From a virus (lineage: Duplodnaviria > Caudoviricetes): 38,055 nt of DNA. Under the pieces are notes generated by a model. It was not told where the DNA came from. It did not search any database and saw only the letters and a list, made by a program, of their open reading frames with translations. The stretch's first letter is position 1; every line of letters begins with the position of its first letter. The stretch spans positions 1-38,055 of IMG/VR virus record IMGVR_UViG_3300046707_000142; one strand, 5' to 3'. Made by a program: the position numbers and the translations under genes. This document shows positions 32,449 through 38,055 of the stretch, piece by piece.

Positions 32449-32871
32449 TCACGCTGGCTTGATCGGACGTACTTTGAGGCGTTGCTCCGGCAAAAGGCCG
32501 AACTTCTTCACGTGGAACGCTGTTGGGCAGACCGCATTGGTGAGCCCTTCAAACACGTGCGGCATTGCCGCAAGGTAAGCTGCCGAGATCGTTGCGATGA
32601 GTAGCAACCCATCGGCGGCGGGTTCGGCATGGCCGATCCAATGAATGCCGGCATCTACGTACGCCTGGCGTTCGGCTGGGTTGCGGAGCTGGTTCCGATC
32701 GCGCGTGATGATGGCGTCGAAGCCGAGTTCCGCTACCTCAGTGATTAACTCGGTGTCGGTTCTGCCGCCGAACCCAAGCTCGGCCGCATGCTTGAACTCG
32801 TGCTCGAAGAAGACGGCCTGCAGGGGGGGTAGTACTGCGCTGGTCTCGTTCTCGTCTAGGAAGAACCTCAC
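32449..32871 (-). CDS. PIN-domain toxin, VapC45-like
   Basis: MRFFLDEN, TDTELI, IITRD acidic PIN motifs; coupled to upstream DUF433 gene. Confidence 0.85.
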   Translation of the reverse strand: MRFFLDENETSAVLPPLQAVFFEHEFKHAAELGFGGRTDTELITEVAELGFDAIITRDRNQLRNPAERQAYVDAGIHWIGHAEPAADGLLLIATISAAYLAAMPHVFEGLTNAVCPTAFHVKKFGLLPEQRLKVRPIKPA

Positions 32872-33488
32872 GCGGAACGCCTCCGCAAGGAGGTCACCTG
32901 GTCGTAAAGATCCTTCGCGTCAGTGGCACCGCGTGCGGTCACTGACGGGTAGAAGCGAGAGGCGTCCTCGGGCGCGACCTCGCCGCCGGTGAGTAGCTTC
33001 CCGATGGTGTCGAAGGCGACGCGTGTGTTCTCAACGGTGGGCCAGCCGCCAAGTCTGGCCTCGCGTACCTCCAGGTGAGGCCGGGGCCGGCGGAAATCGA
33101 TGACGTCCGTCCCCTGCATGTTCTCGAATGGAGCGAATACGTCCTGGAGGTTGACGAGGAGCTGTTGCCCCTTCTTTTCCACCAGGTCGATAGACCGACC
33201 GTCATCGGAGAAGTACACGGACTTACCGTCGGTATGTAGTTGGTACTGTGACGGATGATCGGTCAGGTCGAACTCGGGGAGCGCGGCGACAGCTTTCCGG
33301 ATCTTCTGTAGGGAAATGTTCGCTCGCATGCGCACGAAGGTCCGCAGAGCGATGATGTCCCGAAACGAGTACAGGACAACCGGTGTGGACTGGAGTTCAG
33401 GCACGAGCAGTCCGCTTGAACGCCACCCCTTCAGCTGACTGATGGACGCGCCGGTCAAGACTGAGGCGAGCTCAACCGGGAAGGTCAC
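32868..33488 (-). CDS. HTH-DUF433 antitoxin, VapB45-like
   Basis: MerR-like HTH (QLKGW...YSFRDI...SLQKIRKA); LGGWPTVENTRV DUF433 motif; AAGGAGGT RBS. Confidence 0.85.
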   Translation of the reverse strand: MTFPVELASVLTGASISQLKGWRSSGLLVPELQSTPVVLYSFRDIIALRTFVRMRANISLQKIRKAVAALPEFDLTDHPSQYQLHTDGKSVYFSDDGRSIDLVEKKGQQLLVNLQDVFAPFENMQGTDVIDFRRPRPHLEVREARLGGWPTVENTRVAFDTIGKLLTGGEVAPEDASRFYPSVTARGATDAKDLYDQVTSLRRRSA

Positions 33489-33862: not shown

Positions 33863-33936
33863 AGCGCGGTGGAGCAGTTCGGTAGCTCGTAGGGCTCATA
33901 ACCCTGAGGTCGCCGGTTCAAATCCGGCTCGCGCCA
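33863..33936 (+). tRNA. tRNA-Met(CAT), initiator-type, variant; CCA not encoded
   Basis: Acceptor AGCGCGG/TCGCGCC with A1xC72 mismatch; D-stem GAGC/GCTC; anticodon arm TAGGG-CTCATAA-CCCTG with three G-C pairs; T-arm GCCGG-TTCAAAT-CCGGC. Confidence 0.9.
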
Positions 33937-33950
33937 CTCACGCAGAGCAA

Positions 33951-34132: not shown

Positions 34133-34283
34133 GAGTCCTCCCTCCCTCCAGCATCTAGATCATCTGCGTATCCAGTGTCGCCGGAGGCTCTGACATTTCC
34201 TCTTGTCGCAGGTCAACGTTTCGCCACGGTCGCGGACGGTCGGCCGCTGGCAGACAGAATCCCGTCGCTACTATGTTCGAACT

Positions 34284-34529
34284 GTGGTGCGGCATCCGGA
34301 GCACATCGCGCCGGCCGTCCGGATCCGGCGGACCGGCCAGATCGTGCTCCTGCTCGAGTGGGAGCGCGACCGGCACGGCCGCTGGAAGGGGCACGTCGCC
34401 TGGCTCACTCGCCCGCAGGTGGCATGGCGTGGCGTCGATGTGTGGCTGCCGGCCGAGGACCTCGAGCGGATCGATGGCCAGGACTACCGACGCGTGCCAA
34501 GGCGCATCGCCGACGACGCGCCCTTCTGA
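34284..34529 (+). CDS. Small hypothetical protein with acidic DDAPF C-terminus
   Basis: GC3-rich from GTG 34284; TACTAT/TATGTT just upstream suggests leaderless start. Confidence 0.65.
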   Translation: MVRHPEHIAPAVRIRRTGQIVLLLEWERDRHGRWKGHVAWLTRPQVAWRGVDVWLPAEDLERIDGQDYRRVPRRIADDAPF

Positions 34530-34756
34530 ACTTGCGCAGCTAACGTCGATCGCAGGTCGATGATCTCGACGAGGCTCCCGACATCGACGAGCGCCAGGGC
34601 GGCGTTCAACTCGGCGGGCCGGTAGTAGCCGCGGCCGAGCAGGACGCCGCGGTGCCAGGAGACACGGATCCAGGGCTGTGGGCCGTGGCCGTCGCACATG
34701 TCCAAGACGATGATCTCTACGCGTCGTCCGTACTGGTCGACCATCCTCTTGCCCAC
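34484..34756 (-). CDS. Small hypothetical protein
   Basis: GTG 7 nt after TACGCT -10-like hexamer; RVEIIVLD...WIRVS...VDVGSLVE. Confidence 0.6.
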   Translation of the reverse strand: MGKRMVDQYGRRVEIIVLDMCDGHGPQPWIRVSWHRGVLLGRGYYRPAELNAALALVDVGSLVEIIDLRSTLAAQVQKGASSAMRLGTRR

Positions 34757-34789
34757 GCGCGTCAGCGTATGTGGCCTGCGCAAACGGGA

Positions 34790-34825
34790 ACCGCCCGCTC
34801 TCTCCGGAGCTAGAGAGCGGGCGGT
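34790..34825 (-). terminator. Stem-loop terminating rSAM-PIMT operon
   Basis: Perfect 14-bp IR ACCGCCCGCTCTCT/AGAGAGCGGGCGGT just after PIMT stop. Confidence 0.75.
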
Positions 34826-34839
34826 GGTCGTGCCGGGGG

Positions 34840-35976
34840 CTAAACGGTGATGGTGTGCTGCCACTTCCCGCGGCGGAGGTGGATCACACCGTCAGGGTCG
34901 ACCCGTACCCGCGCGCCGTACAGCGGCAGCGACCCGTCGGTCAGCCACCGGTGGCGGATGTCGTCGAGCAGATCCCACAGCCTGCGCGGGCCACCTTGGT
35001 GGACCTCGGGCCGTTCACCGGTGTGGCCGGTGGCGCGCGCCCAGGAGCCGTCACTGTGCAGCATCCACGCGGTACGCGCCTCACCGTCTTCCCCGTAGTG
35101 GTGCTCGATACCGGGCGCCAGCACGCCGAGCATCGACGACACCTCCCACGCCTCGGGCACGTTGATCACCGGATACCGGCCCCGCGTGACATCGGTCCCG
35201 GCCGCGCTACGGATACGCGCGAGCATGGTGGTGAGCGTCGGCGGGTAGTCCGGCCCGGTCCGGCTGTGCATGAACCCGGCACGGTCCCACTCGATCCGCC
35301 CCTCGGCGCCGCCGTCATCGGTGGCGTCCACGGTAAGGATCAGTGTGGTGTCGGTGATGGTGGTGACGAGCCGGCCACCAGGTCGCAGCGCGGTCAGCCA
35401 GCTCGCCGGGATGGGCCGTACGGCGACGGTCGCGATGATGCGGTCGTAGCTGCCGGGCAGCGGCCCAGTGGCATCGACCGCCACGACCAGCGGTTCCATC
35501 CCGATCGAGTCGAGGCATGCGATCGCCCTCTTGGTGAGGTGTTCATCGACGTCGATGCTCGTCACGCGGCCGTCACCGAACCGTGCGGCGAGCAGCGCGC
35601 AGCCGTAGCCGGAGCCGGTGCCGACGTCCAAGATGTCGACGTGGTCCTCGAGGTAGGCGTGGTCATACATCTGCAGGAGCAGGCCGGGGAGCGTCGCCGA
35701 GGAGGTCGGGCGGCCGATGGCCTGGCCGCCTATGGGGGTGTCGTCGGCGTGGTGGGTGCCGATCTGGGTGACGAGGGAACGGTCGCTGTAGGCCGCATCG
35801 AGCCATGCGGGTATGTCGCTCGTCCCATCCTGGATGGTCCACCGGTCGGCGCCGTCAGGGGTCCACCAGCGCGATACGAAGACGTGCCGCGGTACGGCGG
35901 AGATAATGCCCCGCCACAGAGATGCCGGTGGGCTGACCTGCTCGGCGAGCCGGTCGGCGTAGGCCTGCCAGTTCAT
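34840..35976 (-). CDS. Protein-L-isoaspartate O-methyltransferase homolog, RiPP-associated long form
   Basis: VPRHVFV, AAYSDRSLVTQ, TSSATLP, LDVGTGSGY, YDRIIAT, LRPGGRLV, C-terminal QGGPRRLWD; ATGA-coupled to rSAM. Confidence 0.9.
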   Translation of the reverse strand: MNWQAYADRLAEQVSPPASLWRGIISAVPRHVFVSRWWTPDGADRWTIQDGTSDIPAWLDAAYSDRSLVTQIGTHHADDTPIGGQAIGRPTSSATLPGLLLQMYDHAYLEDHVDILDVGTGSGYGCALLAARFGDGRVTSIDVDEHLTKRAIACLDSIGMEPLVVAVDATGPLPGSYDRIIATVAVRPIPASWLTALRPGGRLVTTITDTTLILTVDATDDGGAEGRIEWDRAGFMHSRTGPDYPPTLTTMLARIRSAAGTDVTRGRYPVINVPEAWEVSSMLGVLAPGIEHHYGEDGEARTAWMLHSDGSWARATGHTGERPEVHQGGPRRLWDLLDDIRHRWLTDGSLPLYGARVRVDPDGVIHLRRGKWQHTITV

Positions 35977-36803
35977 GGGGTCGGCCGCCTCGACGGGTCG
36001 CAGTCGTTGGAGTCGGCGGGGTTGCAGGTCACGCACGCGTCTCGCCGGGGGATCGCGTCCACGATCTCACGCCACTGCGTGCTCTTCAGCAGGACGCCGA
36101 GCGGCGCGTCGGTGACGTAGCCGGCGATCAGGTGCCGGCCGAGGACGCAGGGGGAGAGCGCGCCGTGGCTGGAGATCGCGGCGCGGCCATCACCGCAGCG
36201 GCCACACAGGTCCTCTAACGTGGTCGGTCGCCCGTCGGCGGCGCGGCCGACGGCGCGTGCGTGGTCGACGGCGATGTCGGTGACGCCGAGCCGGCGCAGT
36301 TCGGCCTCGGCCGACTCGACGTCCTGGCCGTCGACGACCTCGACGATTCCCGCGCGCAGCGGGATCGTGCGGCGCAGCGCTTCGACGATGTTCGCGCGGG
36401 TCCGGTAGTAGCTGCCCTCGGTGCCGGTGACCTGCGCGTGCTTGGCCGGGTTCGCCGCGTACCACGACGTCCCGAGGGAGACACCCGGCGTGCTGAACAG
36501 CTCCCACAGCTCGTCTGTGACGTGGACGAGGTTGGTGTAGACGTCGACGTTCAGGCCGGCGTCGAGCGCGAAGCGGACGAGCTCGGCGAGGTCGGGGTGG
36601 AGCGTGGGCTCCCCTCCGATGAACTGGACGGCCTCGACGCCGAACGTGGCGGCCTCGGTGATGATCCGTTTCCAGGCGGGCACCGTCATGCTGCCGGTGT
36701 CACCGTCTGGGCCGGATGAGTTGTAGCAGTGGCGGCACTTCAGCTGGCAGTACGTCGAGATCTCCAACTCGAGGAACGTGACGGGGGCTAGCTGTTCGAT
36801 CAT
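35973..36803 (-). CDS. Radical SAM protein with SPASM/Twitch auxiliary domain
   Basis: CQLKCRHC, IGGEPTLHP, YTN, LCGRCG...SPCVLG...CVTCNPADSNDC; GAAGGG before ATG. Confidence 0.92.
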   Translation of the reverse strand: MIEQLAPVTFLELEISTYCQLKCRHCYNSSGPDGDTGSMTVPAWKRIITEAATFGVEAVQFIGGEPTLHPDLAELVRFALDAGLNVDVYTNLVHVTDELWELFSTPGVSLGTSWYAANPAKHAQVTGTEGSYYRTRANIVEALRRTIPLRAGIVEVVDGQDVESAEAELRRLGVTDIAVDHARAVGRAADGRPTTLEDLCGRCGDGRAAISSHGALSPCVLGRHLIAGYVTDAPLGVLLKSTQWREIVDAIPRRDACVTCNPADSNDCDPSRRPTP

Positions 36804-36836
36804 GTTGGTCCCTTCGTCGTGTCGTGTGATGGGTGT

Positions 36837-36880
36837 GGGCCACGACGGCGCCGTCCCTTGGATGGGCGCCGCCGCGGCCC
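36837..36880 (-). other. Intergenic stem-loop between small peptide genes and rSAM gene
   Basis: 16-bp GC-rich stem with G-U pairs on minus strand. Confidence 0.65.
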
Positions 36881-36889
36881 CGTCTCGGG

Positions 36890-37009
36890 TCAGGCAGCCA
36901 GGTTCACGCTGGTGCCGGTGACCTCTGCGACCTCGACGCACTGCGCCAGGTCCGGGTCGCTGCTGCGGCTGCTCTTGACCCAGGTCACACCGCTCATGTC
37001 GCGGGCCAT
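36890..37009 (-). CDS. Truncated DUF397 (BldB-like) peptide, 39 aa
   Basis: WVKSSRS...QCVEVA motif, no VRDSK half; AGGAGGAG RBS. Confidence 0.75.
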   Translation of the reverse strand: MARDMSGVTWVKSSRSSDPDLAQCVEVAEVTGTSVNLAA

Positions 37010-37017
37010 GTCTCCTC

Positions 37018-37137
37018 CTATCGATCGAGCCAGCGGTTCAGGATCCCGGCGAAACGCGTGCGCCGGCGCTTGCAGTACGGGCAGGTGCTGCACGTGCCCA
37101 GGCATCCGGGATGGTTACAGCTTGAGCAAACCGGCAT
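37018..37137 (-). CDS. 39-aa six-cysteine peptide MPVCSSCNHPGCLGTCSTCPYCKRRRTRFAGILNRWLDR
   Basis: Read by hand; AGGAGG-CCCT-ATG; its TAG overlaps the RBS of the next gene. Confidence 0.75.
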   Translation of the reverse strand: MPVCSSCNHPGCLGTCSTCPYCKRRRTRFAGILNRWLDR

Positions 37138-37186
37138 AGGGCCTCCTGTTTCCTACGCCGCCGGGGCAGCGTGGTCGTGATCGCTG

Positions 37187-37230
37187 GTCCCGGCGGCGCC
37201 GCTGCGGACGGGCTGGGCCGCCGCCGGGAC
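37187..37230. repeat. 12-bp inverted repeat (stem-loop) upstream of Cys-rich peptide
   Basis: GTCCCGGCGGCG 37187-37198 / CGCCGCCGGGAC 37219-37230. Confidence 0.7.
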
Positions 37231-37335
37231 GATCTGGGGGCCGCCAGGGAGCGCGGATACGGGCGGCTCACGCGCTCCCCGGCGGCCGTGGGCGCGCGGA
37301 CTTGACTCCGCGCCCCGGAGGGCCGTCGCGCTTAC

Positions 37336-37875
37336 TCAAGGCGCGGCGGCATCGCCATCGCCATCGCCATCGCCATCGAGAGCCTCATCGGCCATCTCCC
37401 GCGTGAGGATCTCCTCCTCGGCCGCGGTGAGCTCAACCCCGCTGCGGAGCACCACGGCGCACGCGGCCTTGCTCACCGACCGCTGCTTGAACCGGAAACG
37501 GCGGGCGAAGATCTCGACGAGCATCAGCCCACGACCGGACTCGGCATCCGGGTCGCGGCCGTTCACAGCCGACGGGCGCACGCTGGGGTTCCGGTCATCG
37601 ACGATCACCGCGGTCCACCGATCCCAGACCTCGACGTTGAGGTAGATGTTCGCCCGTGGAGCGTTGACTGCCGGCTCGGCGTCGCCGTACTTGATCGCGT
37701 TCGTGACGAGCTCGGAGACGATGAGGATCACCTCGTCGACGTGCGTGGAATCCGTCGTCGCGAGGTCGTCGCCCAGCACCTCACGGGCGAAGTCCCGCGC
37801 GGCCTTGGCCGACTGATCCTCGATCGGCAGCGGCAGGCTGGTGGCGATGAGCGGTTTGAGCTGGGCGTCCGTCAT
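37336..37875 (-). CDS. HATPase_c ATP-binding (anti-sigma-factor-like) regulatory protein
   Basis: LIVSELVTNAIKY N-box, VDD, ESGRGLMLV G-box; GAGGTG RBS. Confidence 0.9.
   Translation of the reverse strand: MTDAQLKPLIATSLPLPIEDQSAKAARDFAREVLGDDLATTDSTHVDEVILIVSELVTNAIKYGDAEPAVNAPRANIYLNVEVWDRWTAVIVDDRNPSVRPSAVNGRDPDAESGRGLMLVEIFARRFRFKQRSVSKAACAVVLRSGVELTAAEEEILTREMADEALDGDGDGDGDAAAP
37350..37378. repeat. (CATCGC)n microsatellite encoding DGDGDGDGD
   Basis: About 4.8 tandem hexamer copies. Confidence 0.85.
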
Positions 37876-38004
37876 CGCACTCACCTCTCGCTCCCGGTGC
37901 TGCGCCGCAGCGGTGACGATCCCCACGGCTCCAGATCGTGGGTGACGACGGCGCGGTACCCCGGGGAGGGTATGGATATGTCCGCGCCGTCGTCACCGCC
38001 TTGT

Positions 38005-38053
38005 TGCGACTGGCAAAGTCGCAGGTCAGAACTAGAACTCCATAGAGTTCTAG
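38005..38053. promoter_or_regulatory. Two operator-like inverted repeats upstream of HATPase operon
   Basis: TGCGACT-N5-AGTCGCA 38005-38023; CTAGAACTC-N4-GAGTTCTAG 38032-38053. Confidence 0.6.
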
Positions 38054-38055
38054 GG

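Follow-up and report, generated by a model that had tools for sequence, protein, structure and literature searches.

A Cys-x-Pro tail on a radical SAM enzyme beside a RiPP-type PIMT homologue: a candidate enzyme-fused substrate in a cassette next to a prophage

Gene clusters that pair a radical S-adenosylmethionine (SAM) enzyme with a long protein L-isoaspartyl methyltransferase (PIMT) homologue of the type acting on peptides made on the ribosome and altered after translation (RiPPs), the PAMT type, are already in print. Section 2.3 of Lee et al. (PMC10787088) catalogues 249 of them and gives no precursor or substrate. As set out in parts 1 and 3 (of 5) of a 2026 review (PMC13001092), RiPP PIMTs modify one Asp, typically preceding Gly, in constrained substrates; the pairing with a radical SAM enzyme is untreated in these parts, and radical SAM is unmentioned in the excerpted text of the imiditide preprint 10.1101/2023.04.07.536058. 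According to extracts of PMC8326336, an open site of the clusters of SkfB and CteB is thought to bind a substrate Cys, and extracts of PMC8429565 make borosins a precedent both for an enzyme fused to its precursor and for one that acts on the other subunit. In the present study, we analysed 38,055 nucleotides of viral DNA (IMG/VR record IMGVR_UViG_3300046707_000142, the whole of which is called the window), in which a minus-strand cassette encodes a radical SAM enzyme and, joined to it by an ATGA overlap, a PIMT homologue (Table 1). We propose that the C-terminal Cys-x-Pro (C-x-P) tail of the radical SAM enzyme is a fused precursor, which this enzyme would crosslink by thioethers and the PIMT would then aspartimidylate at Asp264. 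Judged from sequence, a structural model and analogy, this full reading has close to an even chance. That the tail serves as substrate of both enzymes appears rather probable, and, granted that, thioether chemistry would be likely. The first-pass annotation of this DNA had overlooked the tail and had offered the pairing as a possible new RiPP-type system. The pairing is not new, as the 249 clusters attest, and the statement that it is uncharacterised as a class stood: no characterisation, and no biochemistry on such clusters, was found in the literature searched. A search that lacked most subscription journals found no paper on a self-substrate radical SAM enzyme or on a C-x-P tail.

The tail of the window enzyme carries the motif C260-x-P-x-D264-S-x-D267-C268-x-P, in which C260, P262, D264, D267, C268 and P270 are invariant in 37/37 aligned sequences. 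The residue pair 264-265 is invariant as D-[SG] in the radical SAM alignment (A1), and the motif was found in 115 of the 120 nearest proteins. The AlphaFold2 model of the enzyme (predicted local distance difference test, pLDDT, 90.5) has high confidence up to about residue 250 and drops under 50 over residues 261-276, and the tail is probably disordered. For the family-wide statistics, 168 loci and the window were pooled, 18 were dropped (8 duplicates, 6 truncated or frameshifted and 4 open or short) and 151 were kept. Pro stands at +2 of 97% of the 752 tail Cys residues of these 151 members, against a Pro background of 16%, and each tail holds 2-42 C-x-P units at variable spacing, mostly 4-9. 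The strict Pro at +2, the range of unit numbers and the variable spacing point to a repeated substrate motif rather than to fixed ligands. The highest count, 42 C-x-P units in a tail of 341 aa, belongs to a member on a viral contig (L092:7977-9734) that lacks both PIMT and kinase. In the last unit of a tail, Tyr is frequent at +4 (41% of loci with a close PIMT and 58% of kinase loci, both defined below); the window tail has no such unit. Triceptide (cyclophane) substrates are defined by an aromatic-x-x motif, and the window tail has no aromatic residue.

The annotation as radical SAM/SPASM was right in its first half and too generous in its second. The enzyme has the SAM-cluster motif CxxxCxxC (C19/C23/C26), but it is not a full SPASM protein: PF13186 scores 17.4, below the cut-off of 21.5, three auxiliary Cys (C200, C203 and C219) lie in the core, and the second auxiliary cluster motif CX2CX5CX3C occurs in 0 of 151 family tails. 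The auxiliary motif CGxC-x12-17-C is present in 148/150 members and further core Cys are absent in 144/149; this three-Cys motif presumably binds a cluster. Of the best 25 NCBIfam matches, no radical SAM model passed its cut-off, and an atlas search returned SPASM-labelled clusters only. The best fold match of the model was SkfB (6efn; Z 25.0, root-mean-square deviation 3.2, 244 residues aligned), with viperin-like enzymes and BlsE at Z 20-21 and anSME at 19.7. Since the barrel begins at residue 10, with the SkfB alignment starting at SkfB residue 101, the enzyme has no RiPP recognition element (RRE). As a side observation, the SAM-cluster motif is longer by one residue (C-x3-C-x3-C) in L009, L013, L023, L038 and about 16 more loci, mostly of Streptomyces, in a close-PIMT subclade.

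With sacti- and ranthisynthases such as SkfB and CteB, the window enzyme shares the best fold, the three-Cys auxiliary motif and a Cys-rich candidate substrate. It differs from them at 22-23% identity, in its repeated C-x-P units, and in that the locus lacks an RRE, a separate leader-core peptide, the second cluster motif, a protease and an exporter. Three auxiliary Cys together with a Cys-repeat tail fit thioether formation. In the proposed mechanism, the tail would enter the barrel in cis or, in the manner of borosins, that of another subunit. A tail thiolate would ligate the iron left open in the three-Cys auxiliary cluster, following the proposal made for SkfB and CteB. The 5'-deoxyadenosyl radical would take a hydrogen from a residue close to every C-x-P unit, either Pro at +2 or, here, Asp at +4, and a C-S bond would then form with a change of -2 Da each. 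The C260-x3-D264 spacing is that of PapB, and freyrasin has Cys-Asp thioethers. The PIMT would act on D264-S265 in the constrained loop, with +14 and then -18 Da, to give aspartimide or isoAsp. Since no dedicated protease or exporter accompanies the genes, the product would stay intracellular, freed by host proteases or kept on the enzyme. If this reading holds, the locus shares with borosins (OphMA, types I-III) a C-terminal core peptide within the enzyme polypeptide; it differs from them in using a radical SAM enzyme and not an alpha-N-methyltransferase, in having a second, separate tailoring enzyme, and in lacking an OphP-like protease.

The PIMT homologue sided with the RiPP-type models, as the first-pass annotation had supposed, and not with housekeeping Pcm. 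TIGR04188 matches it over nearly the whole model with 267 bits, and the Pcm model gave 42.7 bits only. The score is below the TIGR04188 cut-off of 380 and no ATP-grasp gene is present, so the protein does not qualify as an ATP-grasp-system methyltransferase. Its fold, with GxGxG and an extra C-terminal domain, is that of a RiPP-type PIMT, and the best fold for its model was the Thermotoga maritima PIMT 1dl5, likewise with a C-terminal domain. Near the C-terminus it reads W-x3-G-S-L-P, one residue longer than WXXXGXP, with G and P conserved in the PIMT alignment (A2). In the tail, D264-S265 is the candidate PIMT site and D267-C268 an alternative; Asp269-Pro cannot form an imide. Like the clusters of Lee et al., the locus has an adjacent radical SAM enzyme and a PAMT of more than 300 aa with no known RiPP enzyme, and the PIMT of one family locus (L075, WP_030368492.1) is row 5617 of their table ('rSAM-associated?'), 55% identical to that of the window. 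The tail reading and the kinase and solo subtypes are absent from the section and table rows compared. With imiditides/pamtides, cysimiditides, lanthimiditides and graspimiditides the locus shares a long PIMT with a C-terminal domain and a Cys-flanked candidate Asp-Ser/Asp-Gly; unlike them, it has no free precursor, LanBC or ATP-grasp, and it has WXXXG-S-L-P in place of WXXXGXP. The two CXXCXGXG motifs around Asp that mark cysimiditides are absent from the small open reading frames (ORFs) and from the tail. Tails of the distant-PIMT group have a D-G-C similar to the lanthipeptide TxDGC motif given in PMC10787088 (section 2.3).

The family is common, being present in 63/251 genomes of the order of genome G001, and in the genome collection it accounts for 558 of 600 pattern stretches. 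The radical SAM enzyme and a RiPP-type long PIMT stand together in 92 of the 151 loci, which bears out the expectation that they are co-conserved. We distinguished loci with a close PIMT (83), a distant PIMT of about 30-39% identity (9), an APH-like kinase (24) and a solo radical SAM enzyme (35). The kinase takes the place of the PIMT 3' of the radical SAM gene (L021:7632-8483, L049:6972-7832, L085:5813-6637, L089:7661-8566 and 20 more); it has the motifs HGDxHW and DWE, and PF01636 was above its cut-off in 2 of 6 tested. Sister cassettes have an APH-like kinase where the PIMT would stand, or do without either. The tails vary with the partner gene. D[GS]xDC occurs in 75/83 close-PIMT, 0/9 distant-PIMT, 0/24 kinase and 1/35 solo loci, that is, in 1/59 loci without a PIMT. 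A D[GS] within 3 residues of a C-x-P was counted in 80/83, 7/9, 2/24 and 11/35, respectively, and 8/9 distant-PIMT tails have some D[GS]. Kinase-locus tails are made of Ser/Thr-rich C-x-P-x-C repeats, and CxP[ST]C is found in 18/24 of them, compared with 1/83 close-PIMT, 2/9 distant-PIMT and 3/35 solo loci. Some single loci also fit: L076 has a PIMT and an Asp-Gly tail although it lies among kinase-type cores, and L055, L117 and L118 have a close PIMT and the motif beyond the main clade.

This association of tail and partner gene is suggestive only of a functional link, because the cassette types largely track clades (13 changes on the tree) and well-supported branches gave only 3 independent pairs, with a sign test p of 1 for PIMT and kinase alike. 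A Fisher test (P 1e-11) was dropped as phylogenetically inflated. Further points also weigh against a fused substrate. Adjacent tail and partner gene can co-travel with no functional link, and the looser D[GS] motif appears in the 11 solo loci counted above. L144 retains the Asp motif and lacks a PIMT within 2.6 kb, the tail of the PIMT-bearing L131 is without Asp-Gly, in L100 Glu replaces the first Asp, and in L098 a PIMT lies behind the kinase and the tail has no Asp. Across the tails no acceptor residue beyond Pro at +2 is conserved, no release protease was found in the family flanking ORFs, and viperins, BlsE and anSME trail SkfB by 4-6 Z units.

Such fold matches also bear on a rather unlikely alternative, in which the tail has a metal-binding role (Zn, or an additional Fe-S ligand) or regulates its enzyme, the radical SAM enzyme targets a nucleotide, a metabolite or a phage protein, and tuning of the tail is the most that the PIMT or kinase does. 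The viperin-like enzymes and BlsE would suit it, as would the 35 solo loci, the CxxC of the window tail (C257/C260) and the recognition of Zn-Cys hairpins without a crosslink by cysimiditide PIMTs (extracts of 10.1101/2024.10.02.616296). CxxC is present in just 18/151 tails, however, and CX2CX5CX3C in none; 2-42 units with a strict Pro at +2 are hard to square with fixed ligands. If the tail is instead a fused substrate of another chemistry, the enzyme could act like anSME and convert Cys to thioaldehyde/formylglycine, or make another non-crosslinking change at C-x-P. We consider this unlikely. The window tail ends in C268-D-P-S-R, which matches the sulfatase-type motif (C/S)XPXR given in extracts of PMC8746622, D-C-x-P-x-R occurs in 81 of the 120 nearest proteins, and anSME is among the fold matches. 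The C-x-P core motif is shared in this way, with C-x-P-x-R in the window subclade, but C-x-P-x-R is found in just 29/151 loci, so Arg at +4 is not family-wide. There is no sulfatase nearby, SkfB is the better fold fit, and anSME has two fully ligated auxiliary clusters (extracts of PMC8326336) against three auxiliary Cys and no second-cluster motif here.

A substrate encoded at some other place in the host or phage genome, with the tail as an incidental feature, is very unlikely. The contig is partial and the cassettes occupy many unrelated sites, which would allow for this. A pattern scan of 251 genomes for the tail motif gave matches in 36: 23 in radical SAM tails (3 frameshifted), 2 in decayed cassette remnants (L204 and L209) and 11 in unrelated places. 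The latter are 7 chance or non-coding matches and 4 proteins that we take to be RHS-like. Matches were called out of frame by match length in G115 and by coordinates in G029, G191 and G211. Apart from the two remnants, the 251 genomes held no stand-alone motif copy and no intact free-standing one, and a word search of 30-150-aa proteins, of low sensitivity, found no stand-alone tail peptides. A substrate encoded separately would also leave the tail conservation unexplained. Decayed or frameshifted cassettes were frequent in the family (L204:3490-4485, L209:3560-3690, L029, L125, L143 and L182), including tail remnants with no radical SAM core.

The first-pass annotation had favoured the six-Cys or half-DUF397 peptide as the precursor, which is now most improbable: they lie on the same strand with a good ribosome-binding site and six Cys in the former, but 1.84 billion representatives yielded no real relative of the six-Cys ORF (2 matches, both long Cys-rich proteins, E 3e-5 and 6e-4), the family loci have no counterpart of it, its single Asp adjoins the C-terminus, neither ORF has a C-x-P unit or an Asp-Gly/Asp-Ser site, both are missing from the two nearest loci, L095 (radical SAM enzyme 78% identical) and L001, and the DUF397 ORF, a BldB-like gene, is truncated. 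It covers PF04149 model positions 2-25 of 55 and keeps KSS and CVEVA without the VAVRDSK block. Co-expression of the small peptides with the enzymes would probably give a negative outcome, because the substrate is likely to be the tail that the enzyme itself carries.

The HATPase, DUF397 and six-Cys genes are accessory. Extracts of PMC10294661, where the VAVRDSK block is named, describe HATPase (AbaA), DUF397 (BldB) and XRE (WhiJ) as a common gene set, and the expected company of such genes held to that extent: upstream of L095 are XRE, DUF397, HATPase and a helix-turn-helix-like gene, with no six-Cys ORF. In the 77 close-PIMT loci whose upstream flank reaches 1.4 kb or more, however, HATPase was counted in at least 12, DUF397 in at least 9 and a small two-CxxC ORF in at least 1, these being lower bounds as the flanks are short. 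In 6 Streptomyces loci (L025, L026, L030, L035, L046 and L051) a DUF6415 gene lies directly 5' of the radical SAM gene.

Table 1. Features of the cassette and its surroundings in the window
Feature	Position	Strand	Evidence
AbaA-like HATPase_c protein (HATPase_c_2), accessory regulator	37336..37875	-	PF13581 E 3e-11
Two hairpins in the gap between HATPase gene and six-Cys ORF	37187..37287	-	z -4.7
Six-Cys ORF, 39 aa, good ribosome-binding site, orphan, possibly metal-binding, unconserved	37018..37137	-	ORF/translation
Half-DUF397 / BldB-like ORF, 39 aa, truncated, accessory, unconserved	36890..37009	-	PF04149 26.1 bits
GC-rich hairpin 5' of radical SAM start	36837..36880	-	z -3.9
Radical SAM enzyme, 276 aa, no N-terminal RRE	35973..36803	-	PF04055 E 2e-16
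Cys-x-Pro tail, radical SAM enzyme residues 252-276, candidate fused substrate	35976..36050	-	invariant columns, pLDDT, family statistics
RiPP-type PIMT homologue (PAMT), 378 aa, GxGxG + C-terminal domain	34840..35976	-	TIGR04188 267 bits
Perfect 14-bp inverted repeat 3' of PIMT, likely terminator	34790..34825	-	z -3.3, no long U run
tRNA-Met(CAT), initiator-like anticodon stem	33863-33937		94% identical to G001 tRNA

All of the genes and structures first described for the cassette are present on the minus strand (Table 1), and a single contig from run X1, possibly the source sample, covers 34567-37977 with zero differences from the window. In addition, profile scans confirmed that LanB/C, ATP-grasp, lasso cyclase, RRE, protease and transporter are missing among the 9 ORFs scanned. 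The description as a single operon needs qualification: the genes share one strand, but two strong hairpins split the HATPase gene from the six-Cys ORF. Similarly, the proposed terminator is a perfect inverted repeat but has no long U run. Stacked inverted repeats (37930-38055, z -6.7) lie 5' of the HATPase gene, where the contig stops; they are a possible operator of a divergent XRE gene past that end, as in L095.

The neighbouring prophage is real, the rest of the 38-kb record being a partial tailed-phage genome with primase, terminase, portal, capsid and tail genes. The phage part is followed by a PIN/DUF433 pair (MerR-HTH/DUF433 + PIN_10, 32449-33488, GC 0.61 against 0.69 in the phage part), likely a toxin-antitoxin, and then by tRNA-Met. 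As the tRNA has no duplicate of at least 14 nt elsewhere in the window, no att site was assigned there. A 108-aa ORF of no known family (34203-34529, plus strand) lies in the tRNA-terminator gap and has one distant viral relative (L172, 37%). The host is likely related to Actinoallomurus, because the nearest named relative of the radical SAM enzyme (73-74% identity) comes from that genus. A viral scan with the single radical SAM query gave no relative, and with the alignment it gave 14; a Pfam-confirmed lysin lies within the fetched flank in 5 of these 14 loci, and the window's own candidate lysis genes had no Pfam match. Neighbour genes vary between family loci, and no protease or exporter gene recurs in the 150 of 159 family flanking ORFs scanned, in line with what the first-pass annotation had noted for the window. 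Both findings suit a cassette that is mobile and whose product stays in the cell. For intracellular anti-phage systems that include a PIMT, lanthiphage clusters offer a precedent (10.1101/2024.06.26.600839; 10.64898/2026.08.26.747419). In extracts of the former, lanthiphages/lanthivirins are actinomycete, often prophage-borne and intracellular, with a PIMT-domain enzyme and few transporters, as here; they differ in the cyclase. A role of the cassette in phage conflict or defence is a guess.

Overall, the gene pair is known, and what is likely novel here is the substrate logic of an enzyme-fused tail. It is suggested that the tail reading offers a cheap and concrete test for the missing substrate of the 249 catalogued clusters, as a precursor fused to its enzyme escapes small-ORF mining. 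The wider view, in which actinomycetes have a widespread class of self-substrate radical SAM enzymes that make a new Cys-to-Pro or C-x-P-directed crosslink in their own tails, with swappable tailoring genes (two PIMT groups and an APH-like kinase), and that travel as prophage and island cargo for intracellular phage conflict, is on the doubtful side. If the tail reading is true, a borosin-like architecture would join the radical SAM RiPP enzymes, possibly with a new Cys-Pro linkage and with natural repeat substrates of 2-42 units, and the many solo and kinase-linked members now called just 'radical SAM protein' would be reassigned.

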